Assembly (NCBI GenBank): GCA_035291825.1
Contig: DATDRI010000439.1
Location: 1-37,356 of the forward strand
Reading direction: 5' to 3'
Source of the DNA: Vicinamibacteria bacterium
GTDB lineage: Bacteria > Acidobacteriota > Vicinamibacteria > Marinacidobacterales > DATDRI01
Length of the DNA stretch: 37,356 nucleotides
Positions 5,963 through 33,329 of the stretch are shown one piece after another. Within the stretch, counting starts at the first letter, position 1. Every line of letters starts with the position of its first letter. A program made the translations under genes and the position numbers. The notes below the pieces were generated by a model. It was not told the DNA's origin and did no database searches. It saw only the letters and a program-made list of their open reading frames with translations.

Positions 5963-6010
5963 AAGGCGACGTCCAGCCTAACCAAAAAACACTGGTGTCG
6001 CAACCGCACC

Positions 6011-7309: not shown

Positions 7310-7322
7310 CGAGTTCGCTCCT

Positions 7323-8354: not shown

Positions 8355-9430
8355 CTCTTGATGGAGACCACCACGCAGTCGCCGGAGACCTCCCGCTCGC
8401 GCAGGAGGGTCTGATTCCGTCCGAGTCGCGCCATCACTTTCCGCACCGTACGACCGGCGGGCGGCAGGGCAACGTCGCTCGCTATCACCGAGTCCCGGAG
8501 GAGCGCCGCTTCCCCTACCGTCACCCGGTCCCACAGGACGGCCCCGTGAACTCTCGCCCCGCGATCCACACGGCAATCAGCCCCGAGTATCGACGTACCG
8601 GAGAACAGCGCCTCGCGATCGATGGATGTGCCTGGCCCGGCCACCACTAGGGTCCCGGGCGGCCAGCTGGGCGGAGGCTCCACCACCTGGGCTCGCCACC
8701 GGCTCCGGAAAATCCCTCCATGAGCTAGCTCCTGGCAGGCACGGAGGTAGTTCTCCGGCGTGCCGATGTCGAACCAAGGACTGTCCGACACGTAACCGAA
8801 GGCGCTCCCCTCCATCAAGAGCTTGGGCAGCAGATCCACCTCCAGCCGACCGAAACGTCCGGCAGCCAAGTACTCGAAGACGGTGGGCTCCAAGACCCAA
8901 AGACCGGCAAACATGAGAGGGCTGGAAGACTCACTCTTCTTTCCGATGGAGACAATGTGACCGTCATCGGCCAAGTGGAGCTCGGTGTAACTGCTACCCT
9001 CCGGTTTGGATCGTAACAACAGAGTGGCCCGAGCCTCTTTCCTCTTATGCCAGTCGATCAAGGTCCCCAGATCGGTATCCACCACCGTGTCTCCGTTGAG
9101 GAGGACGAAACTCCCATCGGAAAGCCACTCTTCCGCCTGTTTCAAACCGCCCGCCGTGCCGAGAATCTCGGTCTCGCGCGAATAGTGAATGACTAGGTCC
9201 TTCCCCCCGTCGGATCCCGAAAGCGCGTCCACGATGCTCTGGGGCTTGTGATGCAAGTTCACGACTACTTCCCGAACCCCCGCCCGGCGAAGGAGCTCGA
9301 CGGCATACTCGATGGGAGATCCTCCCAGAAGCGGTATGGCCGGTTTCGCCCAAAAGACGGTGAGTGGGCGGAGTCGTCTTCCCTCCCCTGCCGCCAGCAC
9401 CATAGCCTTGATCGGCGATGACGTCGTCAT
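8351..9430 (-). CDS. Sugar-1-phosphate nucleotidyltransferase with C-terminal left-handed beta-helix
   Basis: 359 aa. N-terminal NTP-transferase signature MVLAAGEGRRLRPLT followed by KPAIPLLG. Hexapeptide-repeat-like C-terminus. ATGA overlaps at both ends (9427-9430 and 8351-8354). Confidence 0.8.
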   Translation of the reverse strand: MTTSSPIKAMVLAAGEGRRLRPLTVFWAKPAIPLLGGSPIEYAVELLRRAGVREVVVNLHHKPQSIVDALSGSDGGKDLVIHYSRETEILGTAGGLKQAEEWLSDGSFVLLNGDTVVDTDLGTLIDWHKRKEARATLLLRSKPEGSSYTELHLADDGHIVSIGKKSESSSPLMFAGLWVLEPTVFEYLAAGRFGRLEVDLLPKLLMEGSAFGYVSDSPWFDIGTPENYLRACQELAHGGIFRSRWRAQVVEPPPSWPPGTLVVAGPGTSIDREALFSGTSILGADCRVDRGARVHGAVLWDRVTVGEAALLRDSVIASDVALPPAGRTVRKVMARLGRNQTLLREREVSGDCVVVSIKR

Positions 9431-13597: not shown

Positions 13598-13805
13598 TTT
13601 GGCTTGTGAGGAGGGGAGTTTAGCACAGCCGGAGATGGGCGTTCAACGAGGAAAGCGCTAGATGTGGTGGAAAGGGTCTCCCAGCCCACTACATCTACCT
13701 CTGGCGGCAGGCTAGACCGGGCTCCGCCATTGGCCCTGGCGGAGGGCATGTGTTAATTTGGGGCAGCCCTTCGAAGGAGCATCGCTTCCGCGTCCTCGCC
13801 GGCCC

Positions 13806-17962: not shown

Positions 17963-20409
<2,447 letters not shown>

Positions 20410-20619: not shown

Positions 20620-22809
20620 GTGCATCCGAGAACCCCAACTCCCCCGCGGCGCCCCTACCCCGGGCGAGCCGACCTCGCTCGCCGTACTCCCCGTTCCAGG
20701 AATCCAGATCGGCAATCCGGGTGGACCGTCTTCCGCGATCTCTTGGTTGCATCGGCTCTGTTTGCCATGGTGACGTTGGCGGTGACCTATCCCTTGGCTC
20801 TTCACCCGGCAAGCCTGGGACGCTTCGACAATGGAGACGCTCGGCTGAACGCCTGGGCGATGTCGTGGGTCGCCCATCAAGTGGTTCGAGATCCGATTCA
20901 TCTTTTCGAGGCCAACACGTTTTACCCTCTGCCACGTACTCTGGCCTTCTCGGAGCACCTATTCGTGCCCGGCCTGATGACTCTGCCGCCTCTCTTGCTC
21001 ACCAACGACCTCGTTCTGTCTTACAACTTGGTCTTGCTGTTCTCCATCTTCCTGTCGGCGCTGGGAATGTATCTGCTGACCTTCTCCCTCACCGGCAGCC
21101 GCCTGGCGGGCATTCTTGCCGGCATCTTCTTTTCGTTCGCACCTTTTCGATTCAACCGCCTGCCCCATCTTCAAATGCAGCTCTATGCCTTTCTTCCTTT
21201 GGCCCTCCTCTGTCTCCACCGTTTCCTGGAAACGGGCAAGCGCGTCTGGGCGTGGGGCTGCGCCGCCTTCTTCGTGTTACAGGTTCTCTCCGGAACGTAT
21301 CTGGCGGCCATGGCCGCGGTGGCGCTCCTGGTCGCCGCTCTAATCCTCACTCCGGGCTCGGGAAGGTCGAGAAAGGAGCTCCAGAGCCTGGTGTTGGCAT
21401 TCGGGGTGTCCGCGCTGTGCATCTACCCCTTCGCTCGTCCCTATCTATGGGTGAACAGCCATCTGGGCATCGAATGGGATCTTGCTGGAATAGGAACTAT
21501 GTCGGCAACGCCGCAAAGCTATTTGGCGTCTTCCAGCCGCCTGTATCGCGCATTCACCGACGATCTGATCGAGGAGACGGAGAGTAGAGATTTCCTCTTC
21601 CCCGGCCTGACGCTTCCCGTTTTGGGATTGGTAGGATGGATCGTGCTACTCACCCGCCAGGGAGCGAATGCCCGTCCCCGAGCCACCGCGCTTTGCTACC
21701 TGGCCATCGCCTCGGCCGGCTTCCTGCTCTCCCTGGGGCCACACACGCCGCTCTACGGGTTTCTCCACGAGCATCTGATCTTTTTTCGGGGCCTTCGTGC
21801 ACTGAGTCGATTCGCGCTGCTCCCGTTGCTCGGTCTCAGTCTGCTGGCGGGGCATGCGGTGGGCTGGCTTTTCGGAGATCGGGGTTGGTTGCACGACCGA
21901 AGGTGGGTGGCGTCGCTCATCGGTTTGTTCTTCCTCGCCGAGTCGACCGCCCTGCCCTATCCGTTCGAACCGTTCCGGGATGACCCTCCGGAGGTCTACG
22001 CCTGGTTGGCCGAGGAGGCGGAGCCCGGCCCCATGGTCGAGCTTCCCTTTCTCGTCCTCGACACCCGATACATGTTCTGGGCGAGACACCACGGGTTTCG
22101 CGCTACCTTAAACGGCGATAGCGGCTTCGTTCCCCCGTCTCACCGCTGGCTGAAGAATCTCTTCCTCCGGTTTCCTTCACCCGACTCGATCGCCACTTTG
22201 CAGAGACTGGGTGTTCGTTACGTCGTCCTCCACCTCGGTGCCTACCGGGACCAAGCTCTCATCCGTCTGCTGAATGGGCTGGAGAGCCACCGTGCCGAGC
22301 TCCTGAAAATCCGAGACTTCGGCCGCGACATGGTGGTCGAGGTGATCCCTCCCAAGAACGAGGCTTCGCCTCCCCACCCCCAGGTCGTCCTTCCCACCAT
22401 CGGCGAGCCTTCTAGGAAAATCCCGGAACGAGAGAGTTCCGTCGAAGAAGTCATCATCTCCTTGGAGTCGCCCAGCCAAGTGACCGGGATCCGCTTGACG
22501 TACGGCCGTATCCCGCAGTCTCCCGTCACCAGGGTCGAGCTACTCCTGCCGGCCCGTCCCGGTGACTCAGCTGACGATGACGACGGGTGGGAGGAGGCAT
22601 GGATCAGCCCACCGGATTGGCCGGCGCTGACGGAGCTCATACTCGGGCTGCTCGAGCATCCCGCTCAGGGATCGCAAACCCTGAGCTTCCAGGTGCCCGA
22701 ATCCTTCCAAACGTTTACTACCGACACCGTCAAGCTTCGTCTGACCGGTTACCAGGGCCCTCCCGACGTGGCCGCCATCGAGATTCTCGGGGCGGACGAT
22801 CCCAGCTGA
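20620..22809 (+). CDS. Large polytopic membrane protein, GT-C-like (ArnT/PMT/YfhO-like) glycosyltransferase candidate with C-terminal soluble domain
   Basis: 729-aa ORF with a GTG start at 20620 (start uncertain). About 11-13 hydrophobic segments. The first extracytoplasmic loop carries acidic residues (GRFDNGDARLNAWAMSW), as in GT-C enzymes. The last ~230 aa are hydrophilic. Assigned by architecture only. Confidence 0.5.
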   Translation: MHPRTPTPPRRPYPGRADLARRTPRSRNPDRQSGWTVFRDLLVASALFAMVTLAVTYPLALHPASLGRFDNGDARLNAWAMSWVAHQVVRDPIHLFEANTFYPLPRTLAFSEHLFVPGLMTLPPLLLTNDLVLSYNLVLLFSIFLSALGMYLLTFSLTGSRLAGILAGIFFSFAPFRFNRLPHLQMQLYAFLPLALLCLHRFLETGKRVWAWGCAAFFVLQVLSGTYLAAMAAVALLVAALILTPGSGRSRKELQSLVLAFGVSALCIYPFARPYLWVNSHLGIEWDLAGIGTMSATPQSYLASSSRLYRAFTDDLIEETESRDFLFPGLTLPVLGLVGWIVLLTRQGANARPRATALCYLAIASAGFLLSLGPHTPLYGFLHEHLIFFRGLRALSRFALLPLLGLSLLAGHAVGWLFGDRGWLHDRRWVASLIGLFFLAESTALPYPFEPFRDDPPEVYAWLAEEAEPGPMVELPFLVLDTRYMFWARHHGFRATLNGDSGFVPPSHRWLKNLFLRFPSPDSIATLQRLGVRYVVLHLGAYRDQALIRLLNGLESHRAELLKIRDFGRDMVVEVIPPKNEASPPHPQVVLPTIGEPSRKIPERESSVEEVIISLESPSQVTGIRLTYGRIPQSPVTRVELLLPARPGDSADDDDGWEEAWISPPDWPALTELILGLLEHPAQGSQTLSFQVPESFQTFTTDTVKLRLTGYQGPPDVAAIEILGADDPS

Positions 22810-22941
22810 AAACAGGGAACCGGTGGATGACTCGGAATCCCATCGACTGGTAGAACTAGCAAATCGACCGTGGGTCGTGAAGCGCCCAAGAGCAGCCTGG
22901 TGGGGACATTCCTGAGATACAATGGTCGTCTCGGCGAACGG

Positions 22942-23718
22942 ATGAAAGAGCGCGAAGTTTCTGAGACCGGCAGCGACCCGACCCCGTTGGAGAGCCGGCT
23001 GAAGCTGGAAATTCAGCCCCAGCCGGACGCCACCACTTGCGGGCCCACGTGTCTGCAGGCCGTCTACCGATACTATGGCCTCGATCTGTCGCTCGAGCGG
23101 GTCATCCAGGAAGCCGGCCGTCTTCCGGAGGGCGGAACGCTTTCCGTGCTCTTGGCTTGCCACGCTCTCGAGCATGGCTTGAGAGCCACCATCTACACGT
23201 ACAATCTCCAGATCTTCGACCCGACCTGGTTTGGCCCGGACGAGCCCGACTTGGCCGAACGACTCGAAGCTCAAAGGGCCTTCAAAAGGTCGGAGAGACT
23301 CACTCTAACAACGGACGCCTATCTGAATTTCCTCGAGCGAGGCGGTTCGATTCGTTTCCAGGATCTCACGCCGGCTCTCATCCGGAGATACCTCAAACGG
23401 TCCACTCCGATTCTCACCGGACTCAGCGCCACCTATTTGTACCGATCCGCCCGAGAATGGGGACCCGACGACGAGTACGATGACGTGAGGGGAGAGCCTT
23501 CCGGCCATTTCGTGGTTTTGTGTGGATACCATAAGGAGCAACGCCGGGTCCTGGTTGCCGATCCCTGGTTCCCCAATCCGATAGCAGAGGGCCATTACTA
23601 CCAGGTTAGTATCGATCGGCTGATTGGAGCGATTCTCTTGGGCATCCTGACTTATGACGCGAATTTCCTTATCCTGGAACCCTCTCGCCGAGCTCCCTCG
23701 ACTCCATGCCCAGCCTGA
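22942..23718 (+). CDS. Soluble papain-fold cysteine peptidase, C39-like
   Basis: 258 aa from ATG 22942 (the track start, GTG 22870, is also possible). Q-x5-C-G oxyanion/nucleophile motif (QPDATTCGPTCLQAVYRYYG, Cys33). GHFVVLCGY (His189). VLVADPW (Asp207). No signal peptide, no TM segment and no fused ABC transporter. Confidence 0.7.
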   Translation: MKEREVSETGSDPTPLESRLKLEIQPQPDATTCGPTCLQAVYRYYGLDLSLERVIQEAGRLPEGGTLSVLLACHALEHGLRATIYTYNLQIFDPTWFGPDEPDLAERLEAQRAFKRSERLTLTTDAYLNFLERGGSIRFQDLTPALIRRYLKRSTPILTGLSATYLYRSAREWGPDDEYDDVRGEPSGHFVVLCGYHKEQRRVLVADPWFPNPIAEGHYYQVSIDRLIGAILLGILTYDANFLILEPSRRAPSTPCPA

Positions 23719-25175
23719 TCGTCGTCGACAACCCCAAGCACTGGCCGTTCGATATCCCCGGAGTGGAAGTCGTCGACGCTCGCACTTACCTTACCCATCA
23801 GGAATACGGTGAAATTCGCGGCGTGAAAGTCTTCAACCTATGCCGATCGTACCGGTATCAGAGCGTCGGCTACTACGTGACGCTGCTGGCGGCGGCGCGA
23901 GGACACAAACCCCTGCCCAGCATCGCAACCGTCCAGGATCTGAAGACCCAAAGCGTCATTCGATCCGTTTCCGAGGAGCTCGACGAACTGGTGCAGAAGA
24001 GTCTGGCGACGATTCAGTCGAAGCGGTTCCCCTTCAGCATCTATTTCGGCCGGAACCTGGCCAGGCGCTATGACCGACTGGCCTGGCATCTATTTAGCCT
24101 CTTTCCGGCGCCACTCCTCCGTGCCCAATTCGTTCGCAACGACAAGTGGCAGCTCCGCACCGTCCGGGCCATAAGCACCGACGAGGTTCCCGAGAGTCAT
24201 CGTCTGTTCCTGCTGCAGGCGGCGACGGACTATTTTGCCGGACGGCGAGCTCGACCGCCCAAGAGGTTCACCGCGAAGTACGACGTTGCCATCCTGGTCG
24301 ACCCCTCGGAGGAGACCCCGCCATCGGACGAAGCCGCCATCAAGCGGTTCATCAAGGCCGGAGAGGGAATGGGCCTGCGCGTCGAGGTCATCGAGCGTGA
24401 TGACTACCCCAGAGTGGCGGAGTACGACGGGCTCTTCATTCGAGCCACCACCGCGGTCGACCACCATACCTACCGGTTCGCCAGACGGGCGGCGGTGGAG
24501 GGTCTGGTGGTGATCGACGATCCGGAATCTATCATCAGGTGTACGAACAAGGTCTTCCTGGCGGAGCTGCTGGCTCGCCATCGCATCCCCACGCCCAAGA
24601 CCATGGTCATCCATCGCGACAACGTGCAGAACATCGTAAAGGAATTGGGGCTTCCCTGTGTTCTAAAACAACCCGACAGCTCGTTCTCCCGGGGCGTGGT
24701 CAAGGTCGACAGCGAGGCAACCCTGTCGGAGCAAGTGGAGAACTTCTTGTCAGACTCCGAACTGGTCATCGCCCAAGAGTTCCTGCCCACTCCTTTCGAC
24801 TGGAGAATCGGTGTCCTCGACGGAAAGCCTCTTTACGCCTGCCAATACTTCATGGCGCGAGGGCACTGGCAAATCTACAAGCACGCCGTGTCGGGGGCAC
24901 CCAAGGAAGGAGACTTCAAGACGCTGCCCGTCGAGCTGGCGCCCCGCCGGCTCACGCGAACGGCGCTGAAGGCGGCCAATCTCATTGGCAATGGACTCTA
25001 CGGCGTCGACCTCAAGGAGATCGGAGACGAGTGTTATGTCATCGAAGTGAACGACAATCCGAGCATCGAGTCGGGAGTCGAGGACCAGGTTCTTCGCGAG
25101 GAGCTCCACCAGCGCATCATGAGCGTCTTCCTCCGCCGAATCGAACTGAAGAAGATGGGTATTCCTGTCGAATGA
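23706..25175 (+). CDS. RimK-type ATP-grasp ligase with N-terminal RLAN-like domain
   Basis: 489 aa. The N-terminal ~200 aa contain NLCRSYRYQSVGYYVTLLAAARGHKPLPS, which I recognise as the RimK-like ATP-grasp N-terminal (RLAN) domain. The C-terminal half matches RimK: TNKVFLAELLARHRIPTPKT, LPCVLKQPDSSFSRGVVKV, VIAQEFLP, DWRIGVLDG, YGVDLKEIGDECYVIEVNDNPSIESG. ATG 23706 lies 13 nt inside the upstream gene. Confidence 0.85.
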   Translation: MPSLIVVDNPKHWPFDIPGVEVVDARTYLTHQEYGEIRGVKVFNLCRSYRYQSVGYYVTLLAAARGHKPLPSIATVQDLKTQSVIRSVSEELDELVQKSLATIQSKRFPFSIYFGRNLARRYDRLAWHLFSLFPAPLLRAQFVRNDKWQLRTVRAISTDEVPESHRLFLLQAATDYFAGRRARPPKRFTAKYDVAILVDPSEETPPSDEAAIKRFIKAGEGMGLRVEVIERDDYPRVAEYDGLFIRATTAVDHHTYRFARRAAVEGLVVIDDPESIIRCTNKVFLAELLARHRIPTPKTMVIHRDNVQNIVKELGLPCVLKQPDSSFSRGVVKVDSEATLSEQVENFLSDSELVIAQEFLPTPFDWRIGVLDGKPLYACQYFMARGHWQIYKHAVSGAPKEGDFKTLPVELAPRRLTRTALKAANLIGNGLYGVDLKEIGDECYVIEVNDNPSIESGVEDQVLREELHQRIMSVFLRRIELKKMGIPVE

Positions 25176-26467
25176 GATCTTCCAGGCCTCTCCACCTGTT
25201 CGAGGGTTTCGGTGTCGAGCTGGAGTACATGATCGTGGACCGGGATTCGCTTGCCGTGCTCCCGGTCTGTGACGACCTGTTGTGGGCCTCGGCGGGAGCT
25301 CCGGTGTCGGAGGTGGAGCGTGGAGTCTTCGCGTGGTCCAACGAGCTGGTTCAACACGCCATCGAGGTAAGAAACACCGAACCGGTGCCGCAACTAGCTC
25401 CCTTGGCCTCGGGCTTCCAAGCCGAGGTGCGTGCCCTGAACCGTGCCCTGGAGCCGTTCCATGCCAGGCTCATGCCGGGTGGGATGCACCCTTGGATGGA
25501 TCCGGCGCGAGAGACCCACCTGTGGGAGCACGAGTATCAGGAGATCTACCAGAGCTTCCATCGCATCTTCAATTGCCGGACTCACGGTTGGGCCAACGTG
25601 CAGAGCGTGCAGCTCAATCTGCCCTTCGGAAACGAGGAGGAGTTCGGCCGACTCCATGCCGCGGTGCGGCTCCTCCTTCCCATCCTACCTGCTTTGGCCG
25701 CCAGCTCCCCGATCATGGAGGGGAAGGTCACCGGCCTCAGCGACAACCGGTTGGAGATCTCCCGGACCAGCGCTGCCAAGATAGCCGCCATCACCGGCCG
25801 GATGATCCCGGAGCCGGTATTCTCTTTCAGCGATTACCAGACGATCATTCTTCAAAGGATGTACCGGGACATCTCCCCCTATGACCCGAAGGGGGTTCTC
25901 CAACACGAATGGCTCAACGCGCGAGCCGCCATCGCCCGATTCGACCGGAGCGCCATCGAGGTTCGCCTCATGGACATACAGGAGTATCCGGCCGCCGACA
26001 TCGCCATCTGTCGAGCCGCCACCGGGGTACTGCTCGCCTTGGTCGGCGAACGATGGACCAGCCTGGCGCTCCAGCAATCTTGGGAAACGGAACGATTGGA
26101 GAGCATCCTTCTGGCAACGGTGCGAGATGCCGACCGGGCCGTCATCACCGATCGCGCCTATCTCGAGGCCTTCGGCTTCCCGGGCGCCCGGTCGACGGCA
26201 GAGGAGCTTTGGCGACACCTGGCAAGAGAACTGGACATAGCCAGTGAGCCGCTCCAGCTCATCCTCGATAGAGGTCCTCTGGCTCGCCGCCTCCTCGCCG
26301 CCTTGGGCGACCATCCTGACCGCAGCAGGTTCCAGACGGCCTATCAGGAGCTCTGTCATTGTCTCGAGTCTGGAACGCCTTTCGGGGGATCGGGTGATCG
26401 GAAGGACGGGCGCACTACTGGTGCTCCGGACACCGCCGAGATCACTCGACCACCACGAGAAGAATGA
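25172..26467 (+). CDS. GCS2-family carboxylate-amine ligase (YbdK / glutamate-cysteine ligase family 2)
   Basis: 431 aa from ATG 25172 (ATGA overlap with the RimK-like stop). FEGFGVELEYMIVD, WSNELVQHAIEV, GMHPWM, VQLNLPF, LLPILPALAASSP and IEVRLMD. The 5' part of track ORF 24539-26467 is an out-of-frame overlap with the previous gene. Confidence 0.85.
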   Translation: MRSSRPLHLFEGFGVELEYMIVDRDSLAVLPVCDDLLWASAGAPVSEVERGVFAWSNELVQHAIEVRNTEPVPQLAPLASGFQAEVRALNRALEPFHARLMPGGMHPWMDPARETHLWEHEYQEIYQSFHRIFNCRTHGWANVQSVQLNLPFGNEEEFGRLHAAVRLLLPILPALAASSPIMEGKVTGLSDNRLEISRTSAAKIAAITGRMIPEPVFSFSDYQTIILQRMYRDISPYDPKGVLQHEWLNARAAIARFDRSAIEVRLMDIQEYPAADIAICRAATGVLLALVGERWTSLALQQSWETERLESILLATVRDADRAVITDRAYLEAFGFPGARSTAEELWRHLARELDIASEPLQLILDRGPLARRLLAALGDHPDRSRFQTAYQELCHCLESGTPFGGSGDRKDGRTTGAPDTAEITRPPREE

Positions 26468-26485
26468 CAGGGAGGGACGTCTTCC

Positions 26486-27049
26486 ATGGGATTTCTAGAA
26501 ACACTGCCCATCTGGTTCTTGGCTGGACTCATTTTCTCCCTCAGGATTTTCGATGTTTCACTCAGCACCATGCGAACCATCTCGGTTGTCACCGGCCGGA
26601 TCCGATTCTCGGTGTTCCTCGGCTTCGTCGAGATCCTGGTGTGGGTAACGGCTATCTCCCAAGTCATTCTGCGGGTCAGAGAGCATCCGGTGCTGGCAGT
26701 GGCGTACGCCGCCGGTTTCGCCACCGGAAACGCCTTCGGCATCGTCCTGGAGCGCAAGCTCGCACTGGGACGGTGCGTCCTTAGGCTGATCTCGCCTCGG
26801 GGAGAGTCCATCGCCGAGGCGATCGGCCCTTTCGGCGATATTGTCGGCACTTTTCGAAGCGAGCACCGGGGAGTGACCAAGACGCTGGTCTTCGCGACCC
26901 TGGCCCGCCGAGACCTTCCCGCCGCCCTAGAAAGGGCGAAGGAGATCGATCCCCACCCTTTTTACGTCGTGGAGCGCTTTTCCGAGACGAGCCAATTGGG
27001 CCCCTTGCCCCATCCCACCGGTTGGCGAGCGGTCTTCAAGATGAAGTAG
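26486..27049 (+). CDS. UPF0316 / DUF2179-family small membrane protein
   Basis: 187 aa. Three N-terminal TM segments (LAGLIFSLRIFDVSLSTMRTISVV, SVFLGFVEILVWVTAISQVI, VLAVAYAAGFATGNAFGIVLE) followed by a soluble C-terminal domain, as in B. subtilis UPF0316 proteins. GGAGGGA Shine-Dalgarno 9 nt upstream of the ATG. Confidence 0.7.
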   Translation: MGFLETLPIWFLAGLIFSLRIFDVSLSTMRTISVVTGRIRFSVFLGFVEILVWVTAISQVILRVREHPVLAVAYAAGFATGNAFGIVLERKLALGRCVLRLISPRGESIAEAIGPFGDIVGTFRSEHRGVTKTLVFATLARRDLPAALERAKEIDPHPFYVVERFSETSQLGPLPHPTGWRAVFKMK

Positions 27050-28310
27050 GGGGGCCGAACTCATACCCGAGCCTCCGGCGAACCTCCTGGAGACGCTCCA
27101 TAAGATCTTTTCGATTCTCCGCCCCGACGTTGACGATGCCGTAACGGTAGCTCACGCCGTCCTCGAGTCTCTCGAAATCAGAAAGCACCTGGCCGGTCTC
27201 ACACTCGTTCCATATAAGCGTCGAGGGAAACCCGGACTCGACTTCTTCGATGAGCTCCCCATGGGGAGCGTGGATCACTCGGACCGGCTGGAAAACGCGC
27301 AACGGGAAGCTGGAAGCAACCCGGAAATCGCCCCTGCCACGGAGGATCACGGGTTTCGCACCGGTGGCGACCGCCAGAGCGACCTGGTAACCGTTGATGC
27401 CGTCGACCTTCTGGTAGAGGTCCGCAAACTGTCCACAAAGTCGGGGATTGACTTCGACGATCGAGACGCGATCCCGCTCCTCGTCGAAGATCATCTCGAT
27501 ATTGAAGAGCGAATTCGTGAGCCCGAGTTGCCTGATGACCCGCTCCGCCACGTCCACCATGCGGTCCTGAACCTGCGCCGGCAGAGACGAGGGGTAGTCG
27601 AATCTCACGAAACTGTCCGTCCCCTCATGCTTCACCGAGTCCACGATTCCCAGCATCTCTACTTTGCCGTTGACGCTGACCCCTTCTACCGTCGCCTGCC
27701 GGCCGCGCAACAGTTCTTCAGCGATGAAGTAGCTTCCGGTGATTTCGAAGCTCGTCAGCTCGCGAACGAGCTGGTTGAAAATGAAGACGTAGTTCTCGAT
27801 AAACTCCTTCACCGCCGCGCTCTCCAAGAAGGCCGCTAGCTCATCAGGGCCGTGGATTTGGCGCGTCATGACAGAGAAAGCGCCTTTGACCGGCTTGATG
27901 TAGCAGGGGTAGTCGATTTTCCTTAAGACGTCGTGGTAGTCCTTCGGATCGACGAGGCGAAAATCGGCAGTCGCCTTGGGAGCCGCTTCTCTTTGTGCCA
28001 GCCGGGAATAGTACTTGTGCGAGCACCGCATGATGGTTTCCGCCGAAGAGCCCGGCAAATCAAGCCGGGAGGCTATCGCTCCCGCCACCGTGGCCCCCGG
28101 GTAGTCACTCGAGCTCATGACACCGTCGATTTCACCTCTATACGTCTCGGCTGCTCTTGCGATAAAGGATAGGATGTCGTAGTCCCACGGACAGTCTTCA
28201 TCCCGCGGCTCGGCAAAGGTCACTTCGAACTGTTCCCCCCGCTGGGGTCGACTGGTAGACAACTGTTTGCGGTCAACAGCGTTCGGGAAGACCAGCAGCA
28301 CCTTCTTCAC
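27036..28310 (-). CDS. ATP-grasp carboxylate-amine ligase (L-amino-acid-ligase / D-Ala-D-Ala-ligase-like)
   Basis: 424 aa. Pre-ATP-grasp domain (GVMSSSDYPGATVAGAIASRLDLPG). CSHKYYSRL, YPCYIKPVKGAFSV, FIAEELL, and IEMIFDEERDRVSIVEVNPRLCGQFADL (Mg-ATP site). GTG start at 28310, with an alternative GTG at 28301. The 3' end overlaps the DUF2179 gene by 14 nt (convergent). Confidence 0.8.
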   Translation of the reverse strand: MKKVLLVFPNAVDRKQLSTSRPQRGEQFEVTFAEPRDEDCPWDYDILSFIARAAETYRGEIDGVMSSSDYPGATVAGAIASRLDLPGSSAETIMRCSHKYYSRLAQREAAPKATADFRLVDPKDYHDVLRKIDYPCYIKPVKGAFSVMTRQIHGPDELAAFLESAAVKEFIENYVFIFNQLVRELTSFEITGSYFIAEELLRGRQATVEGVSVNGKVEMLGIVDSVKHEGTDSFVRFDYPSSLPAQVQDRMVDVAERVIRQLGLTNSLFNIEMIFDEERDRVSIVEVNPRLCGQFADLYQKVDGINGYQVALAVATGAKPVILRGRGDFRVASSFPLRVFQPVRVIHAPHGELIEEVESGFPSTLIWNECETGQVLSDFERLEDGVSYRYGIVNVGAENRKDLMERLQEVRRRLGYEFGPPTSS

Positions 28311-28453: not shown

Positions 28454-29446
28454 TTAGTGGTTCGTCTGCAGAAGAGGAAATCCGGGCGTAGAAACGGATT
28501 CGATCGCACCCTTCACTCGATAGTAGAGGATACCCTCGACGCCGAATCGGCTCCAGAGATCGATGGCTCCTTGGGATCCTGCCACCAACCCAGCGGTGGA
28601 CAGCGCGTCCACTCTCATCCCCTCGCCCACATTCCCCACCACCGTGGCGGAGACAGAGTCTCGAACCGGCCACCCCGTACTCGGATCGATAATCTGCGAG
28701 AGCCACTCTCCCTCGACCTGGAAACCCTGCTGGTCGCTTCCCGACGTGGAGACGCAACCTTGGTGAATCTCGAACGTGGCAGGCCGCACTGCATTCCTGA
28801 TAGTGAAAGCAGTTGTCCTGGAATCCTCTTTGTTGAAGAGACACACACTGCTCTCCCCTAGATCGACGACCGCCCAGATAGCACCCGCCGCCTCGAGCGT
28901 GGAGAGGGCGCGATCCACTGCATAGCCCTTGGCGATTCCTCCCAGATCGATCTCCACTCCGTTTTGCCCCAGCCAGAGCGTGCTCGCCCGTGGGTCCAAT
29001 CTGAGATGCCGGAATCCCACCTTCGCCCGGGCGATGGCGAGCTCGCCGGGGCCGGGAACGGCGGGATCTCCGCGATGGAAGCCCCAGAGCCTCACCAAGG
29101 GTCCGACGGTGGGGTCGAAAGCGCCTCGCGAGGCCTCGGCAATGCGCATCGACTCGGCGAGAACCTGGAATGTGGACTCGGAGACCACCAGGGGAAAGGC
29201 TACCGGTTGCCGATTGATCCGACTGAGCTCACTGTCCTCCCGGTAGAGGCTCATGAGGAGATCGACCCCTTCGATTTCTTGATAGGCCTGGCTGATGGCC
29301 TTATCGAGCTCCCGCTCCTCGAGTCCGCAGGCCTCGAGAGTAGTGACCGTCCCCATCACGTAGAAGGACTGTTGGCGACAATACGGAGAGTCGAATGACG
29401 ACGCTGCGCCGATTATCCAGAACAAAAGCAGGAGAAAAGGAAACAC
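28454..29446 (-). CDS. apbE: FAD:protein FMN transferase (ApbE family), exported
   Basis: 330 aa, GTG start. Hydrophobic N-terminus FPFLLLLFWIIGAASS. ApbE motifs: YVMGT, SELSRIN, GAFDPTVGPLVRLWGF, IDLGGIAKGYAVD, DLGES, VSTSG. Confidence 0.85.
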   Translation of the reverse strand: MFPFLLLLFWIIGAASSFDSPYCRQQSFYVMGTVTTLEACGLEERELDKAISQAYQEIEGVDLLMSLYREDSELSRINRQPVAFPLVVSESTFQVLAESMRIAEASRGAFDPTVGPLVRLWGFHRGDPAVPGPGELAIARAKVGFRHLRLDPRASTLWLGQNGVEIDLGGIAKGYAVDRALSTLEAAGAIWAVVDLGESSVCLFNKEDSRTTAFTIRNAVRPATFEIHQGCVSTSGSDQQGFQVEGEWLSQIIDPSTGWPVRDSVSATVVGNVGEGMRVDALSTAGLVAGSQGAIDLWSRFGVEGILYYRVKGAIESVSTPGFPLLQTNH

Positions 29447-29461
29447 GATTTCCCTTCACGC

Positions 29462-30037
29462 TCAAGAAATGGATCTTGCCGATCCCAACGAGACGAGCTT
29501 ATCGTCGTCGTCGAGCTCCCGCGGCACCAGCCCCTCTCCGGCGACAGCCCGTCCGTTGGGGCGATGAGACGACGAGCTACACCAAAGCCCCCACCCGATG
29601 ATGCAGATCAAGACGCCCAGAAAGCTCTGCAGGCCGAGGAAGCCCAGCACTTTTACCAGTGCCAGCTCGGGACTCACGAAGCGAACGAGCCACCCTCCCG
29701 CTTCCGAAGTGATGGCGGCGGTAAAGGTGCCCCAGATGAACACAAGCTTCACGCCCTTGCCAAACGGCGCAAAAATGACCAGATGGGTCAGAAGAAGAAG
29801 TACCACCGCCATCATCGCCAGGTGTGCGTGAGTGACTTCCACCATCGAGCCCACCGTGCGCGGAGGCAGGAATCCCTCTTCCGAGCCGTTGTAGTACGCG
29901 ACCACCGAACCTGGACTGAGACCCATCTTCGAGAGGTAGAGAGCGAGGTTGGTTACCCAGAATCCAGAAAGCAGCACCAGCGTGAGACCGATGGTCAATC
30001 GCATCAGGGGATGATTTTGAAAGCCGCCCGATTCCAT
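29462..30037 (-). CDS. Hypothetical 4-TM membrane protein with His-rich second helix
   Basis: 191 aa from ATG 30037, 5 nt after the upstream stop. The track ORF extends to 30205 through that gene. Four hydrophobic helices. Helix 2 reads EVTHAHLAMMAVVLLLLTHLVIF (His70, His72, His85). I recognise no family. Confidence 0.55.
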   Translation of the reverse strand: MESGGFQNHPLMRLTIGLTLVLLSGFWVTNLALYLSKMGLSPGSVVAYYNGSEEGFLPPRTVGSMVEVTHAHLAMMAVVLLLLTHLVIFAPFGKGVKLVFIWGTFTAAITSEAGGWLVRFVSPELALVKVLGFLGLQSFLGVLICIIGWGLWCSSSSHRPNGRAVAGEGLVPRELDDDDKLVSLGSARSIS

Positions 30038-30042
30038 GTATT

Positions 30043-30594
30043 TCACGATTCGTTTTCTCCAACCAGAACCGCATGGAGGGCGAGGGCCCGGCGGACGGTG
30101 GCCGCCAAGGCTCGCACGGTAAGCGTGGCGCCGGTGACCCGCACCAGATCGCGGCCCACCATCAGGTCGTCGCTGAGGTTCTGATCGTTCAATCGATCCA
30201 ACCAACTCTGTCTGACCTTGTAATCTTCCGGCTCGTAAAACGCGAGAATCTCCACTCGCCGCACGCTGCCATCTGGCTTCACCAGAACCATCACCGTCTC
30301 CGTTACGGTCCGCACCACGTGAGTGTCGAAGAAGGCTGCTCCCGCCGGCTTACCCTGGGCGTCGAGCCCGACATAGTAGCTGACGATCTTCGAGGGGAGT
30401 TGCGCCCGCGCCATCTCTTCGACCTTTTCGGCCTGGGCGTCGGTCAGAAAAGCCGACTTCCTCTCGATCCCGCCGCCGGGAAAGGCCTCCTGCAGGGCTT
30501 GCTTCTGCGTTTTGTAGAGCCCGGCTACCAGCTCTCCGGGAAGGATCGCCAGAACCACTACCACTAGAACTGGTAGCCGATGCCGACGTTCCAT
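30043..30594 (-). CDS. Exported FMN_bind-domain protein (NqrC/RnfG-like flavinylation target)
   Basis: 183 aa from ATG 30594 (MERRHRLPVLVVVVLAILPG, signal or anchor). This start overlaps the porin 3' end by 31 nt. An alternative GTG at 30564 overlaps the porin TAG. FMN_bind-type flavinylation motif DLVRVTGATLT, with TGAT codons at 30124-30135. Confidence 0.75.
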   Translation of the reverse strand: MERRHRLPVLVVVVLAILPGELVAGLYKTQKQALQEAFPGGGIERKSAFLTDAQAEKVEEMARAQLPSKIVSYYVGLDAQGKPAGAAFFDTHVVRTVTETVMVLVKPDGSVRRVEILAFYEPEDYKVRQSWLDRLNDQNLSDDLMVGRDLVRVTGATLTVRALAATVRRALALHAVLVGENES

Positions 30595-31919
30595 TGGTTC
30601 GTCCCCGCTCCCGCCCGATTCCCAAAGTCCTGGTAGTCCAGCTTCAGCACCACGCCGGACAGCGGCTTGAGCTCGAAACCGACGGTGAAAACGGACCGAT
30701 CGTTGGCCGGATTCCTCTCGAAGCCGCGCGGCACTTCCGCCTGCGTGTCGTACTCCTCGTAGCGCAGGAAAGGACTGACGGACCAAGCCGAGTCAGCCGC
30801 TACTCCCAACAGATCGTAGGCCGCCTCCACATACCATCCGGCGAGCTCCGAGCCGACCGACGACCTCCCGGTGAGCCCGAGGCTCTCGTTGATGAGCGCC
30901 GCGTCACCCACGCTCCCGCCCGCGTAGAGCCCGCGGAGCTGGAGTCCTCGATAGGTGTACTGAGCATGGATGTCGAAGAGATGGACGTCTCCCCCGATCT
31001 CCGCACCGGTCGGCGTGAGCTCTCCCTGCCCCGATCCACCGAGAAAGAAACTCCCCCCCATCAGGAGACCGGGAAAGCCGGTGAGATCGAGTCGACCCGT
31101 CCAGGCGAAGTCCTCGGCAAGAGATCTCGCGCCCTTCTGGCGGCCCCCTCGCAGTCCGGAGCCGGAAGAAAAGCCGGCACTGTTCAGACCGGCCACCACA
31201 TAGGAACGATAGGTGAAGGGGCCGACGTCGCCGAAGACACCCCCACCGTTCTCGCGCCAGGTGGTGGGGATGATCACGTTCTCCACCTGCGGCCGTGTCG
31301 CCCCATAGAAGATGGTCGGTTCATGGAGCTCGTTCAGAAAACCCATAGGGATGAGAACCATGCCGCCTCGGAAATTGGCTTCGGGACGATAAAGGAAATC
31401 AACGTAGGCGAACTCCACCGAGACCGAGCCTCCTAGCTCGGTCGAGGCATGTTCGAACTCGAGCTCCGAGTTGAAGAGGAAGCGTTCGTTCCATTTGTAG
31501 CCCAGGTAGACGATGGCCCTGAGGAAATCAAACTGATTCAACTTCCCCGAGGCCGTTCCATCGTCGTTCTCGGTGGAAAAGTCCTGGAGCACTGCCTCGC
31601 CGTAGCCTCCTAGGGATGCGCCGCGCTCCACTCCGTAGATCTTGGAGGCCGAGGGTGCCAAACCGTAGCGGCCGGTCAACGGCTCTTCCTCGGTCACTTG
31701 CCCCAACTGGAGTCTTTCGAGCTCCTCACTCAGAAGCTGGAGCTGCCGTTCCAGCTCGTCGATCCGATCTTCGTCAGATGGTTGTTCTTCCGAAACCTGC
31801 TCTCCCTGCTTCGTTTCGCTTTCCGCCGCCAGAGGGCCGGAAAACGAAAAGAGCAACATCCAAAGACTGATGAGGAAGGCGAGGCCGCCCCCCGCCTTCG
31901 TCCGTACGCCATGCCACAT
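30564..31919 (-). CDS. Outer-membrane beta-barrel porin with N-terminal coiled coil
   Basis: 451 aa from ATG 31919. Signal peptide MWHGVRTKAGGGLAFLISLWMLLFSFSGPLAA/ESE. Coiled-coil segment DRIDELERQLQLLSEELERLQL. Alternating beta-strand pattern. C-terminal OMP signature NVGIGYQF. The track start at 31967 is a GTG inside the upstream repeat copy. Confidence 0.7.
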   Translation of the reverse strand: MWHGVRTKAGGGLAFLISLWMLLFSFSGPLAAESETKQGEQVSEEQPSDEDRIDELERQLQLLSEELERLQLGQVTEEEPLTGRYGLAPSASKIYGVERGASLGGYGEAVLQDFSTENDDGTASGKLNQFDFLRAIVYLGYKWNERFLFNSELEFEHASTELGGSVSVEFAYVDFLYRPEANFRGGMVLIPMGFLNELHEPTIFYGATRPQVENVIIPTTWRENGGGVFGDVGPFTYRSYVVAGLNSAGFSSGSGLRGGRQKGARSLAEDFAWTGRLDLTGFPGLLMGGSFFLGGSGQGELTPTGAEIGGDVHLFDIHAQYTYRGLQLRGLYAGGSVGDAALINESLGLTGRSSVGSELAGWYVEAAYDLLGVAADSAWSVSPFLRYEEYDTQAEVPRGFERNPANDRSVFTVGFELKPLSGVVLKLDYQDFGNRAGAGTNQWNVGIGYQF

Positions 31920-31987
31920 GAAATTCACCTCGCTATCCTCTGCTGGGTCTGTGCTACGCCATGCCACATGAAATTCACCTCGCTATC
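31905..31987 (-). repeat. Perfect 33-bp direct repeat (copies 31905-31937 and 31955-31987, 50-bp period) duplicating the porin SD, ATG and first 5 codons
   Basis: Both copies read TACGCCATGCCACATGAAATTCACCTCGCTATC on the plus strand. On the minus strand this is GATAGCGAGGTGAATTTCATGTGGCATGGCGTA. The flanks diverge completely. Confidence 0.95.
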
Positions 31988-32006
31988 GGCTCCCTAGCCG
32001 ATAAAG

Positions 32007-32027
32007 CGAAATTGAAATTCATTTTCA
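32007..32027. promoter_or_regulatory. Fur-box-like operator upstream of the porin/FMN_bind/ApbE operon
   Basis: CGAAAT-TGAAAT-tca-TTTTCA in the only AT-rich patch of this intergenic region. By my hand count, 32008-32026 matches 14/19 positions of the E. coli Fur consensus GATAATGATAATCATTATC. It lies immediately downstream of fur and upstream of the porin start. Confidence 0.5.
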
Positions 32028-32071
32028 TCACATTCGGACTCCTTCGCCTTCCTCACGGAAAAGAGCGTCTG

Positions 32072-32617
32072 CTAGGGCGACGACCTGGGGCGGGAACCGG
32101 TTGCGGCCTTGGTGGCGACCACCTTGTTCTTCTTGGTGCGGGACGGTGCGTCGTTCCGTCCGCGTCTCTGATCGCACTTCTGGCAGACGCCGAATATCTG
32201 GTGCCGGTGAGAATCTATGGTGAACCCATAGGCGTCGGCAATCTCGTCCTGGAGATTCTCGATCTCGGGGCTCACGAACTCGATGATGGTGCCGCATTCG
32301 ATGCAGATCATGTGATCGTGATGCGAGTGCTTGTAGTGATGCTCGAAACGAGTGAGGCCATCCTTCAGCTCGATGGACTCAGCCAGTTTGGCGTCGCAGA
32401 AGAGTTTGAGCGTCCGGTAGATGGTGGTGCGACCGATCTCCCGGTGTTTGCGATGAATCACCCGGTATAGATCGTCGACCGTCATGTGGCCGCCCGTCTC
32501 CAGAAAATATTGCAGGATGACCTCTCGCTGGCGAGAGTGCTTGAGCCCGTTGTCGGCGAGATAGTGCTCGAACACGCGAAACTCCTCGCGGGTCGGGGAA
32601 GAATTACCCGCCGGCAT
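32072..32617 (-). CDS. fur: Fur-family metalloregulator with basic C-terminal extension
   Basis: 181 aa. wHTH region TVDDLYRVIHRKHREIGRTTIYRTLKLF. Metal sites HHDHMICIECG and CQKC. An extra ~30-aa Lys/Arg/Ser-rich tail. ATG 32617 overlaps the upstream stop by 14 nt. Confidence 0.88.
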   Translation of the reverse strand: MPAGNSSPTREEFRVFEHYLADNGLKHSRQREVILQYFLETGGHMTVDDLYRVIHRKHREIGRTTIYRTLKLFCDAKLAESIELKDGLTRFEHHYKHSHHDHMICIECGTIIEFVSPEIENLQDEIADAYGFTIDSHRHQIFGVCQKCDQRRGRNDAPSRTKKNKVVATKAATGSRPRSSP

Positions 32618-33329
32618 CTCGTCCTTCGCCTTGCCGCGGCTCGCGGAGCACGTAGATCTCCTTCGCCAAAGCCTCTTCGATGGCCAGCTGCGTCTCGTCG
32701 CACTCCAGCACGAATGCGGGAGAACGCTGGTGCAACTTCACCCTCACCCCGGGAGTGAAACCGAAGGCAGATAGTTTGTGTAGCCTGGCGTGGTTCTTGG
32801 TGTTCACATAGGCGACCCGCGCCGTCTCGCCGGTGTGCATTTGATTGGCGCTCACCACCACCGCCTCGATGCTTCGCTGCGCCTCGAGACAACAACGCCC
32901 CTCGGGAATGGGTCGGCCGTGAGGACATTGGCGCGGGTGACCGAGCAAGGTGCAGATGCTCTCGGTAATGCCGGGAGCGACGAGATGCTCGAACTCGCAA
33001 GCATTGACCTCCATCTCGAGCATGGGCATGCCCAGGATGTCGTTCACCAGCCGCTCCGCCAACCGGTGGCGGCGAATGATGGCCCGGGCCCGACTCCGTC
33101 CCACCTCGGTGAACGCCAGGGAACCGTCGTCGCGTTCCACGACCTGGCCGCGCCTCTTGAGCTCCTCGATCAATTCTTCGGTGAGCGTTACGTCGGCCAC
33201 GCGGGCCAAATCCTCTCGGCGCGTCGCCCCCCTCTCATCCTCCGTCCACAGAGCCTCCAAGACTTCCTCGAGGACCCTGTCTTGGGGCCGGTGTGTTTGA
33301 TTCCAATCGGCTAGCGGTGTCTCTTTCAT
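32604..33329 (-). CDS. DtxR/MntR-family metal-dependent repressor fused to a C-terminal FeoA (SH3-like) domain
   Basis: 241 aa from ATG 33329 (ATGA overlap with the feoB stop). DtxR core IIRRHRLAERLVNDILGM, EFEH, GHPRQCPHGRPIP. FeoA-like tail GETARVAYV, LSAFGFTPGVRVKLHQRSP. Confidence 0.85.
   Translation of the reverse strand: MKETPLADWNQTHRPQDRVLEEVLEALWTEDERGATRREDLARVADVTLTEELIEELKRRGQVVERDDGSLAFTEVGRSRARAIIRRHRLAERLVNDILGMPMLEMEVNACEFEHLVAPGITESICTLLGHPRQCPHGRPIPEGRCCLEAQRSIEAVVVSANQMHTGETARVAYVNTKNHARLHKLSAFGFTPGVRVKLHQRSPAFVLECDETQLAIEEALAKEIYVLREPRQGEGRDAGG

Follow-up and report, generated by a model that had tools for sequence, protein, structure and literature searches.

A stretch of 37,356 nucleotides from a Vicinamibacteria bacterium (contig DATDRI010000439.1), hereafter called the window, contains between positions 22942 and 28310 five tightly packed genes, which encode a C39-like cysteine peptidase, an RLAN-RimK ligase, a GCS2 ligase, a small membrane protein and, on the opposite strand, a second ATP-grasp protein. 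The locus raises the question of which of these genes belong together and what they might make. An earlier note on this DNA had taken all five as one 'three-ligase cassette', which would either make a small gamma-glutamyl-type peptide or thiol or write and erase a tag on an unlinked protein. Judged from gene order in other lineages, the genes that function together are the three of the operon at 22942-26467 (3.5 kb), not the whole five-gene block. The window is an ordinary member of a genuine, widespread and uncharacterised cassette, equipped here with a lineage-specific fourth gene.

Conservation of the gene cluster

Contigs with orthologous trios were fetched from individual protein homologues; pattern scans of genome and metagenome collections returned mostly a proteobacterial clade with GNAT acetyltransferase partners (see below) and not close relatives. 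The order C39-like peptidase, RLAN-RimK, GCS2 ligase is found in nine further independent loci (Table 1), among them members of Planctomycetota and Acidobacteriota, with identities to the window of 45-72% for the peptidase, 48-67% for the RimK-like protein and 41-55% for the GCS2 protein. The start-stop overlap of the RLAN-RimK and GCS2 genes is retained in six of them (L045, L094, L095, L096, L097 and L102). Between phyla, the RimK-like protein and the peptidase are about 60-67% identical, the GCS2 protein being somewhat less conserved. With this recurrence in nine loci, the adjacency of the first three genes is more than chance; the same does not apply to the last two. The five-gene block is not supported as a unit: none of the nine other loci with the trio has the membrane gene, and the second ATP-grasp gene is partnered elsewhere.

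The fourth gene differs from lineage to lineage. An FGase gene follows the GCS2 gene in L045, L096, L097 and L102. In the last of these, the closest non-identical lineage, FGase is situated where the window has its membrane gene, and the peptidase is 72% identical to that of the window. A class-II amidotransferase-like gene is found in L047 and L094, and NCBIfam identifies the GATase_4 protein of L047 as similar to EgtC (3e-38), which is a gamma-glutamyl amidohydrolase. No carrier, candidate target or small tag gene is conserved beside the trio in any of the ten lineages.

A flank of 3 kb or more on each side is available for 45 distinct RLAN-RimK loci. Of these, 43 possess one of two partner sets, i.e., a C39-like peptidase and GCS2 (8 loci) or a GNAT protein (35 loci), and two possess neither. 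In a neighbour-joining tree, the RLAN-RimK proteins of the GCS2 type group together in a single clade.

Concerning further neighbours, a CNNM Mg2+ transporter gene overlaps the peptidase gene by 17 nt in L045/L046, and CNNM/CorC genes lie beside the operon in three locus groups altogether (L045/L046, the right end of L100, and L027/L030/L031 of Catenovulum). MgtE follows the cassette in the Pirellulales locus, ZIP, TerC and MgtC genes are located near it in L097, and VIT1 in L045. The recurrence of divalent-cation transporter genes beside both types of RLAN-RimK hints at a link to Mg2+/cation homeostasis.

The three core proteins

The product of the first core gene matches Pfam Peptidase_C39_2 (4.8e-11; 43.8 bits against a cut-off of 24) and Peptidase_C39 (3.6e-7; 30.5 bits, also above the cut-off). 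Its residues Q27, C33, H189 and D207 are invariant in 11 aligned sequences, including forms in which a DUF3335 domain is fused to GNAT, and likewise in 41 homologues. In the AlphaFold2 (AF2) model (pLDDT 89.3), the fold is certainly papain-like. Foldseek matches comprise the pseudomurein isopeptidase PeiR (8z4h; E 3.3e-6), the C39 double-glycine proteases (6mpz, 3k8u, PCAT1) and, ranking below both, the glutathione-acylated phytochelatin synthase Alr0975 of Nostoc (query TM-score, TMq, 0.40-0.50; E 5e-4), a set that fits a hydrolase as well as a transferase; Pfam Phytochelatin does not match the protein. The class of C39 double-glycine leader peptidases of ABC exporters does not apply, as the peptidase is stand-alone and without a signal peptide, and neither an ABC transporter nor a leader-peptide gene is present in the cassette or in the nine orthologous loci. 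Sequence and model together describe a stand-alone cytoplasmic papain-fold peptidase or transpeptidase with predicted catalytic residues Gln27, Cys33, His189 and Asp207. Homologues of 60-68% identity amount to at least 7481 clusters (90%-identity clustering), the labels of which include Planctomycetota, Myxococcota, Thermoanaerobaculia, Vicinamibacteria and Omnitrophota.

The second core protein has the architecture typical of Pfam PF14401, with an N-terminal RLAN domain (6.3e-48; 162.7 bits against a cut-off of 25; residues 25-171) fused to a RimK-type ATP-grasp module (1.4e-10; 41.5 bits against a cut-off of 21; residues 281-456). This architecture is common to more than 8000 homologous clusters (90%-identity clustering), many of them 63-67% identical and several labelled Planctomycetota or Vicinamibacteria. 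Over residues 236-460, the protein matches PDB sequences of RimK from Pseudomonas, Thermus and E. coli and of LysX, and the Mg-binding E-x-N-D-N-P block of the ATP-grasp module is nearly invariant in the alignment. The scores stay below the cut-offs of the family models for RimK (NCBIfam TIGR00768 rimK_fam, 71.3 bits against 143.4) and for the S6 ligase (NF007764, 25 bits against 331), and there are weak matches to glutathione synthetase models.

Concerning the RLAN part, the profile search of PDB sequences gave no match at the sequence level. Modelled alone with AF2 (pLDDT 88.7), it has exclusively ATP-grasp proteins as top Foldseek matches in the PDB, namely ArgX (3vpc; TMq 0.58), RimK (4iwx), LysX, synapsin, ITPK1 and MdnC, with probabilities of about 1.0 and a TMq of 0.50-0.58 for most of them (lower for some synapsin chains). 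In hhalign, RLAN exhibits no significant signal against the RimK half of the same protein, so that an internal sequence duplication is rejected and it is the fold comparison that carries the ATP-grasp-like assignment of RLAN; a nucleotide-binding Lys strand is not obvious by eye. Since the top fold matches are all ATP-grasp and a likeness in sequence to the RimK half is lacking, RLAN looks in the model like a degenerate partial ATP-grasp module situated ahead of an active RimK-type one.

A homologue of the RLAN-RimK protein (45% identical) is present in Pseudomonas aeruginosa, where it is annotated as 'RimK family alpha-L-glutamate ligase'. No papain-like, GNAT or GCS2 gene adjoins it; its neighbours are a glutamate/aspartate ABC transporter and, convergently oriented, an Orn/Lys/Arg-decarboxylase-like gene. 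From the neighbouring genes we tentatively take it to be PA1345, which is listed in one paper as 'hypothetical ATP-binding protein'.

The third core protein matches Pfam GCS2 (6.6e-30; 104.9 bits against a cut-off of 21), and in a profile comparison the segment around SVHLNLPF matches glutamate-cysteine ligase of the plant type. E16, E18, E58, E65, H62, N149, R251, E263 and R265 are invariant in 9 orthologues, as is the N-terminal G-x-E-x-E motif. Both the domain score and the conserved Glu and Arg residues, which are predicted to bind metal and ATP, place the protein among the carboxylate-amine ligases of the GCS2/YbdK type. None of the equivalog cut-offs for gshA, EgtA and YbdK is reached, the best score being that for the YbdK family (TIGR02050, 53.8 bits against 176.4; EgtA, 16.6 against 370.8). 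The protein defines a subfamily of its own, which comprises 445 clusters at 50% identity (E <= 1e-30).

The GCS2 protein of the window ends with an extension of about 25 residues (...PREE; 26380-26467) without counterpart in the orthologues. A function of this tail as a substrate of self-modification was ruled out because the tail is not conserved in them, and a match of residues 372-395 to C-type lectin neck repeats (3jqh) was judged spurious.

Organization of the locus

The five open reading frames (ORFs), with the positions and junctions described in the earlier note, were recovered by direct reading of the sequence (Table 1). The RLAN-RimK gene starts 13 nt inside the peptidase gene, the stop codon of which (TGA) is located at 23716-23718, and an ATGA overlap at 25172-25175 joins the RLAN-RimK and GCS2 genes. 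The GCS2 gene ends with TGA (26465-26467) and is followed by a spacer of 18 nt, which holds GGGAGGGA, directly before the ATG of the membrane gene; the latter overlaps the convergent ATP-grasp gene by 14 nt (27036-27049). The overlaps and the short spacer bear out the operon coupling that had been proposed for the co-directional genes, the GCS2 gene being translationally coupled to the RLAN-RimK gene. An alternative, longer start (GTG) of the peptidase gene exists at 22870, but orthologues and public gene calls favour the ATG at 22942. The domain assignments of the earlier note were confirmed for the five proteins by Pfam profile search, DUF2179 alone remaining under its cut-off.

The absences on which that note had remarked were found as well. 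With E. coli S6 as a query (sequence entered by hand), tblastn of the window gave no match to rpsF; there is no acidic-tailed ORF among the ORFs of the window; and no small conserved ORF that could be a precursor is linked to the cassette. No match to a nonribosomal peptide synthetase (NRPS) or a carrier protein was obtained among the scanned flanking ORFs (13.8-22.8 kb and 28.5-36.7 kb). PADLOC models of anti-phage defence had zero matches among the five proteins, Rfam and tRNA scans of the window gave none, and a promoter/terminator scan of 22.4-28.7 kb performed no better than on shuffled sequence.

Table 1. Features of the window and of the other loci mentioned in the text (L numbers are the handles of loci)
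Feature	Locus	Position	Strand	Size, domain or remark
Stand-alone C39-like peptidase gene (core gene 1)	Window	22942-23718	+	258 aa
RLAN-RimK gene (core gene 2)	Window	23706-25175	+	489 aa
RLAN domain of core gene 2	Window	23706-24290	+	Residues 1-195; Pfam RLAN
RimK-type ATP-grasp module of core gene 2	Window	24291-25175	+	Pfam RimK
GCS2 ligase gene (core gene 3)	Window	25172-26467	+	431 aa
Putative UPF0316-type membrane protein gene (fourth gene)	Window	26486-27049	+	187 aa; Pfam DUF5698
Convergent L-amino-acid-ligase-like ATP-grasp gene	Window	27036-28310	-	424 aa; Pfam ATP-grasp_4
ORF matching LptF_LptG	Window	13758-16148		796 aa
metK and S-adenosylhomocysteinase genes	Window	17963-20409	-	Upstream of the cassette
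Membrane protein gene	Window	20620-22809		729 aa
ApbE to FeoB genes	Window	28454-35347	-	Downstream of the cassette
FeoB gene	Window	33326-35347	-	673 aa
Orthologous trio	L045			Vicinamibacteria
Orthologous trio	L047			Gemmataceae
Orthologous trio	L094			Pirellulales
Orthologous trio	L001			Deltaproteobacterial metagenome-assembled genome
Orthologous trio	L095, L096, L097			Further long contigs
Orthologous trio	L102			Closest non-identical lineage
Orthologous trio	L100			Fragmented form
CNNM gene	L045	6055-7152
CNNM/CorC gene	L027/L030/L031	~7466-8734		Catenovulum
MgtE gene	L094	13707-15086
One of the ZIP, TerC and MgtC genes	L097	5900-7201
One of the ZIP, TerC and MgtC genes	L097	13490-14575
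One of the ZIP, TerC and MgtC genes	L097	19351-19860
L-amino-acid-ligase-like/S15 pair	L045	13194-16502
L-amino-acid-ligase-like/S15 pair	L098-L101	~5700-9360
Three systems with RND efflux genes between them	L100	3541-6030, 13737-17359		Within 17 kb
GNAT-type sister loci	L002-L041, L052-L093			Examples in the next three rows
GNAT-type sister locus	L018	7449-8597
GNAT-type sister locus	L036	4806-5915
GNAT-type sister locus	L002	4732-5847
RLAN-RimK homologue of Pseudomonas aeruginosa	L105 (NZ_CP133752.1)	38432-40021		529 aa

Upstream of the cassette are situated a metK/S-adenosylhomocysteinase pair and, closer to it, the gene of a 729-aa membrane protein with only a weak PTPS_related match. Downstream follow, on the minus strand, genes for ApbE, Aq_1264_TM, an FMN_bind protein, a 467-aa ORF, Fur, a DtxR-FeoA fusion and FeoB (the labels Aq_1264_TM and Fur being taken from the public annotation of near-identical contigs). 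None of these flanking genes, on either side, is conserved with the trio across the other lineages. Further upstream, a single ORF has two segments with a match to LptF_LptG, the stronger one covering residues 443-790 (E 3.9e-157); its product looks like a fused LptF-LptG permease.

The membrane protein gene and the convergent ATP-grasp gene

The membrane protein matches Pfam DUF5698 (6.9e-17; 62.1 bits against a cut-off of 27.5); the label DUF2179 is weak, its 17.1 bits being below the cut-off of 22.8. It also remains below the cut-off of NCBIfam NF003191 (PRK04164.1-2; 147.7 against 179). About three hydrophobic helices are recognizable by eye, followed by a weak DUF2179-like cytoplasmic domain. 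Beside the trio, the gene is found only in contigs which are 98-100% identical to the window (L042-L044, L049-L051), and it is absent from L001, L045, L047, L094-L097, L100 and L102. Judged from this distribution, it is a lineage-specific gene, probably of the UPF0316 type, in the slot that related cassettes fill with the FGase amidohydrolase. A literature search found no transport function of UPF0316 proteins. The 'possible export' of a product, as suggested in the earlier note, therefore comes down to one gene that is lineage-specific and of unassigned function.

The convergent ATP-grasp protein matches Pfam ATP-grasp_4 (6.3e-12) and no curated family above cut-off. Its PDB matches are the L-amino acid ligase BL00235 (3vot; 2.8e-6) and BacD (1e-3), and in sequence it resembles L-amino-acid ligases (Lal-like in the following). 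In all five other loci with this gene (L045 and L098-L101) it is divergently paired with a gene for a Peptidase_S15/PepX_C hydrolase of about 680 aa, which NCBIfam places in the CocE/NonD family in the case of L045. No S15 gene is present in the window; the 673-aa ORF considered as such a partner was ruled out, since it is FeoB. As the CocE/NonD hydrolase is its conserved partner elsewhere, the tie of the Lal-like gene to the trio is loose. Apart from the window, the Lal-like gene is located less than 8 kb from RLAN-RimK/GCS2 in only two of the five loci, and it is absent from seven of the nine other trio lineages. In these two, the orthologue (54-56% identity) lies at a distance of 3.8 kb (L045) and 5.7 kb (L100); a loose functional link is therefore possible, outside the conserved operon. 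From their arrangement, the Lal-like gene and the CocE/NonD gene appear as a separate two-gene module that may or may not feed the pathway of the trio.

Within 17 kb, L100 combines a canonical RimB-like/RimK/AstE-AspA set with the Lal-like/S15 pair and with frameshifted or fragmented RLAN-RimK, GCS2, C39 and CNNM genes, the three systems being set apart by genes for RND efflux.

The GNAT-type sister system

The proteobacterial RLAN-RimK genes retrieved by the pattern scans are 41-49% identical to that of the window and have no GCS2 partner. They are accompanied by a GNAT acetyltransferase, which in most cases forms one protein with a C39-like DUF3335 domain; the papain-like Gln, Cys, His and Asp of this domain are the same as in the stand-alone peptidase of the window. 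In 24 GNAT-type loci, a gene for a DUF2817 protein, a family presumably related to the M14 (Zn) carboxypeptidases, is situated between the RLAN-RimK gene and the GNAT/C39 gene. The GNAT proteins are RimI-like (66-92 bits against the TIGR01575 cut-off of 86.4, which one of them exceeds with 91.6). A protein of 561 aa (P0450) combines a GCS2 domain of the same subfamily as that of the window (45% identical) with a C-terminal GNAT domain, so that the four enzyme types are connected in a single network, in which GCS2 and GNAT are no strict substitutes for each other.

A pathway proposed for the three-gene operon, and its alternatives

The reading which we place first is that the trio makes and turns over a small peptide with gamma-glutamyl and alpha-glutamyl bonds, in the cytoplasm, ATP-dependently and non-ribosomally; the chances for and against it appear about evenly balanced. 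By analogy with GshA, EgtA and the relatives of YbdK, the GCS2 enzyme would couple a carboxylate, in all likelihood the gamma-carboxyl of a glutamate, to the amine of a second small molecule at the expense of ATP, giving gamma-Glu-X. The RLAN-RimK enzyme would then, again at the expense of ATP, add one or more alpha-linked glutamates to the free carboxylate of this product, much as RimK, CofF, MptN, GshB and RIMKL act on their substrates; its RLAN module, going by the model, probably serves in binding, be it of the acidic substrate or of a partner protein, without catalysis of its own. The papain-fold enzyme would form a thioester with the peptide, followed either by hydrolysis (trimming) or by transfer to an amine, a transpeptidation for which phytochelatin synthase, BtrH and CtaG provide analogues. 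In related cassettes, an FGase-type zinc amidohydrolase or an EgtC-like Ntn amidohydrolase would remove glutamyl or acyl groups, and in the sister clade the RimI-like N-acetyltransferase would supply an N-acyl step in place of the GCS2 step.

The amidohydrolases of orthologous cassettes, EgtC-like and FGase, are consistent with such a logic of making and trimming, and the pairing of an EgtA-like with an EgtC-like enzyme is, by analogy, that of gamma-glutamyl addition and subsequent removal. Predicted catalytic residues are conserved in all three core enzymes. The gene order kept in nine other loci, the DUF2817 protein of the sister system and the GCS2-GNAT fusion P0450 count in favour of this reading too, as do the match of the peptidase model to an isopeptidase and a phytochelatin synthase and the closthioamide precedent for an ATP-grasp that works with a papain-like transacylase. 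The lack of a linked carrier, of a small conserved ORF, of rpsF and of an acidic-tailed ORF points to a small peptide as well. Several observations weigh on the other side. No substrate or product is known for any member of the three core families. The core proteins lie below the equivalog cut-offs for RimK, LysX, GshA, GshB, EgtA and YbdK, and the chemistry of the trio is therefore read at the level of superfamilies. RimI acetylates the N-termini of proteins, and with RimI-like GNATs in the sister system a free amino acid is no likelier a substrate than a protein or peptide; relatives of C39 are, as a rule, proteases that process peptides. The high conservation across phyla (about 65% for the RimK-like protein) would also be expected from a conserved macromolecular target, and the fusion P0450 indicates that GCS2 and GNAT are not simple alternatives.

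Such a target is assumed by the main rival explanation, which we consider unlikely, though deserving of serious attention, and in which the trio writes and erases a tag. RLAN-RimK would attach glutamates to an unlinked protein, at its C-terminus or on a side chain, in the way RimK modifies S6; GCS2 would gamma-glutamylate a protein amine or, in a PafA-like manner, ligate the new terminal Glu to a lysine; the papain-like enzyme would process the target or remove the tag, and the RimI-like enzyme of the sister system would acetylate the target's N-terminus. The closest solved relatives of the ATP-grasp module (RimK, LysX/ArgX) all act on protein C-termini, the best fold matches of the peptidase include a peptide-leader protease and an isopeptidase, the sister GNATs score as RimI-like, all three core proteins are strongly conserved across phyla, and RLAN could dock a protein substrate, since its fold matches include the substrate-bound complexes ArgX-LysW, MdnC-MdnA and RimK-RpsF. 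LysW, Pup and, in many genomes, the partners of RimK are, however, encoded near their ligases, and neither a candidate target, carrier or small tag gene beside the trio in ten lineages nor rpsF (queried as above) or an acidic-tailed ORF within the window was found. The accessory families FGase, EgtC-like and DUF2817 are known for the hydrolysis of small-molecule amides, and an acetyl-CoA-dependent GNAT could not stand in for PafA-like ligation. A more specific version amounts to a new prokaryotic conjugation system, widespread in Planctomycetota, Acidobacteriota, Myxococcota and related phyla, in which RLAN docks an unlinked protein, RLAN-RimK glutamylates its C-terminus, GCS2 forms an isopeptide bond like a Pup ligase and the papain-fold enzyme is the isopeptidase, the proteobacterial sister system contributing a RimI-like N-terminal acetyltransferase; this we regard as distinctly improbable. 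Both the peptide and the tag of the earlier note are thus compatible with the evidence, and the peptide is favoured; its export did not fare as well, as it depends on the lineage-specific gene alone.

Within the small-peptide reading, a special case similar to glutathione or phytochelatin synthesis seems very improbable. Here, GCS2 would form gamma-Glu-Cys, RLAN-RimK would add a Glu cap in the role of GshB, and the papain-fold enzyme would polymerise or degrade the product, a metal-binding or redox peptide which the nearby cation transporters (CNNM, MgtE, ZIP, TerC, MgtC, VIT1) would suit. Membership in the GCS2 family with a profile match to plant glutamate-cysteine ligase, the weak matches of the RimK-like protein to glutathione synthetases and the Foldseek match of the peptidase to Alr0975 (TMq 0.50) speak for a thiol. 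But the thresholds of the gshA, gshB and EgtA equivalogs are all missed, nothing indicates a specificity for cysteine, and the peptidase is closer to C39 proteases and PeiR than to phytochelatin synthase. Moreover, the transporters adjoin a minority of the loci, CNNM and MgtE transport Mg2+ and not soft metals, and the GNAT-type sister system has no enzyme that forms gamma-Glu-Cys. Hardly credible, finally, is the five-gene unit, in which a dipeptide made by the Lal-like ligase would be extended by GCS2 and RLAN-RimK, trimmed by the peptidase and exported by the DUF5698/DUF2179 protein. The close spacing of the genes in the window (an 18-nt gap that holds a Shine-Dalgarno sequence, and a convergent overlap of 14 nt) and the proximity of the Lal-like orthologue in L045 and L100, which is above random placement, are in its favour. 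Against these stand the absence of the membrane gene (9/9) and of the Lal-like gene (7/9) from the other trio lineages, the absence from the window of the CocE/NonD hydrolase that is the constant partner of the latter (5/5 loci), and the lack of a known transport function of UPF0316 proteins.

If the product is a small peptide, as we prefer to assume, it would be a common but unknown bacterial metabolite; given the repeated presence of Mg2+ transporter genes next to the cassette, it might have to do with Mg2+/cation or osmotic balance. If it is a protein tag, the trio would represent a new bacterial system of post-translational modification. In either case, each of the three core proteins comes from a large family of unusually high conservation, and none of these families has an assigned product, substrate or phenotype. 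The window defines the minimal unit and its dispensable neighbours and, by way of the model, suggests that RLAN is ATP-grasp-like; the P. aeruginosa homologue offers an RLAN-RimK protein without partner genes in a genetically tractable organism.

Comparison with known systems

The organization of the trio is most similar to a neighbourhood that the amidoligase survey of Iyer, Abhiman, Burroughs and Aravind (Mol Biosyst, 2009) reportedly predicted, consisting of RLAN-RimK, a COOH-NH2 (GCS2) ligase and a papain-like peptidase. The accessory genes are said to include FGase, class-II amidotransferase-like and GNAT proteins, and the predicted function the synthesis of a peptide metabolite or peptide tag. 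The Pfam family PF14401 (RLAN) presumably arose from that survey, and with this dedicated family the arrangement, of which the earlier note could not say whether it had been catalogued, is indeed on record. The core is the same in the window, which differs by a UPF0316-like protein instead of the usual FGase and by the Lal-like neighbour. That RLAN has an ATP-grasp-like fold and that partner genes encode RimI-like and EgtC-like proteins are results of the present analysis and are not known from the survey. Full-text literature searches found no experimental or functional study of the RLAN-RimK gene set; a paper on Planctomycetes which cites the survey deals with a different, phage-borne amidoligase cassette. 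In agreement with the earlier note, which knew of no experimentally characterised example of the gene set, the trio is a member of none of the characterised families with which it was compared.

In E. coli and Pseudomonas, RimK together with RimB (and RimA) forms a system for the polyglutamylation of S6 (PMC4741518, PMC7343187, PMC11957791, PMC10092738). Common to this system and the trio are a RimK-type ATP-grasp and a protease in one operon, a logic of writing and subsequent trimming, and an ATP-grasp module that aligns to RimK structures. There are differences as well: The ligase of the window carries the additional RLAN of 195 residues and is below the cut-offs for rimK_fam and S6 ligase, its protease is papain-fold whereas RimB is retropepsin-like, and it has a GCS2 ligase and no rpsF that could be found. 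A cyclic-di-GMP phosphodiesterase partner was not seen among the scanned neighbour genes.

With the pathways of glutathione and ergothioneine (GshA/EgtA, GshB, EgtC), the trio shares a GCS-type ligase combined with an ATP-grasp from the GshB/RimK clade; the EgtC-like amidohydrolases of orthologous cassettes recall ergothioneine synthesis, and the match of the peptidase model to the Nostoc enzyme recalls phytochelatin synthase. It differs from all three in that the equivalog models are missed, neither cysteine nor hercynine enzymes are in evidence, and the peptidase is closer to C39 than to phytochelatin synthase.

N-acetylaspartylglutamate (NAAG) metabolism consists of NAT8L, RIMKLA/B and aspartoacylase, and bacterial synthesis of N-acetylglutaminylglutamine amide (NAGGN) of Ngg/AsnO. 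The sister system, with its N-acetyltransferase, RimK-like ligase and DUF2817 hydrolase, is reminiscent of a set for making and degrading N-acetyl-Asp-Glu. In the window, GCS2 takes the place of the acetyltransferase and the papain-like enzyme is an obligatory addition, the homology being at the level of superfamilies.

Concerning butirosin, a gamma-glutamyl group serves there as a removable protecting group. In closthioamide synthesis, an ATP-grasp enzyme works together with a papain-like transacylase (CtaD/CtaG; PMC7183216). An ATP-grasp and a papain-like (C39/BtrH-like) enzyme are thus common to the window, to butirosin (BtrJ/BtrH/BtrG) and to closthioamide, and in the latter two the papain-like enzyme does not hydrolyse but passes on an acyl or peptidyl group. 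Both of these are built on a peptidyl or acyl carrier protein, whereas no carrier or phosphopantetheinyl transferase occurs among the scanned neighbours of the window or in the related loci, and their ATP-grasp enzymes belong to a different clade. Taken by analogy, the system would work like a hybrid of three known principles, i.e., RimK with a trimming protease, the addition and removal of a gamma-glutamyl group, and an ATP-grasp acting together with a papain-like transacylase.

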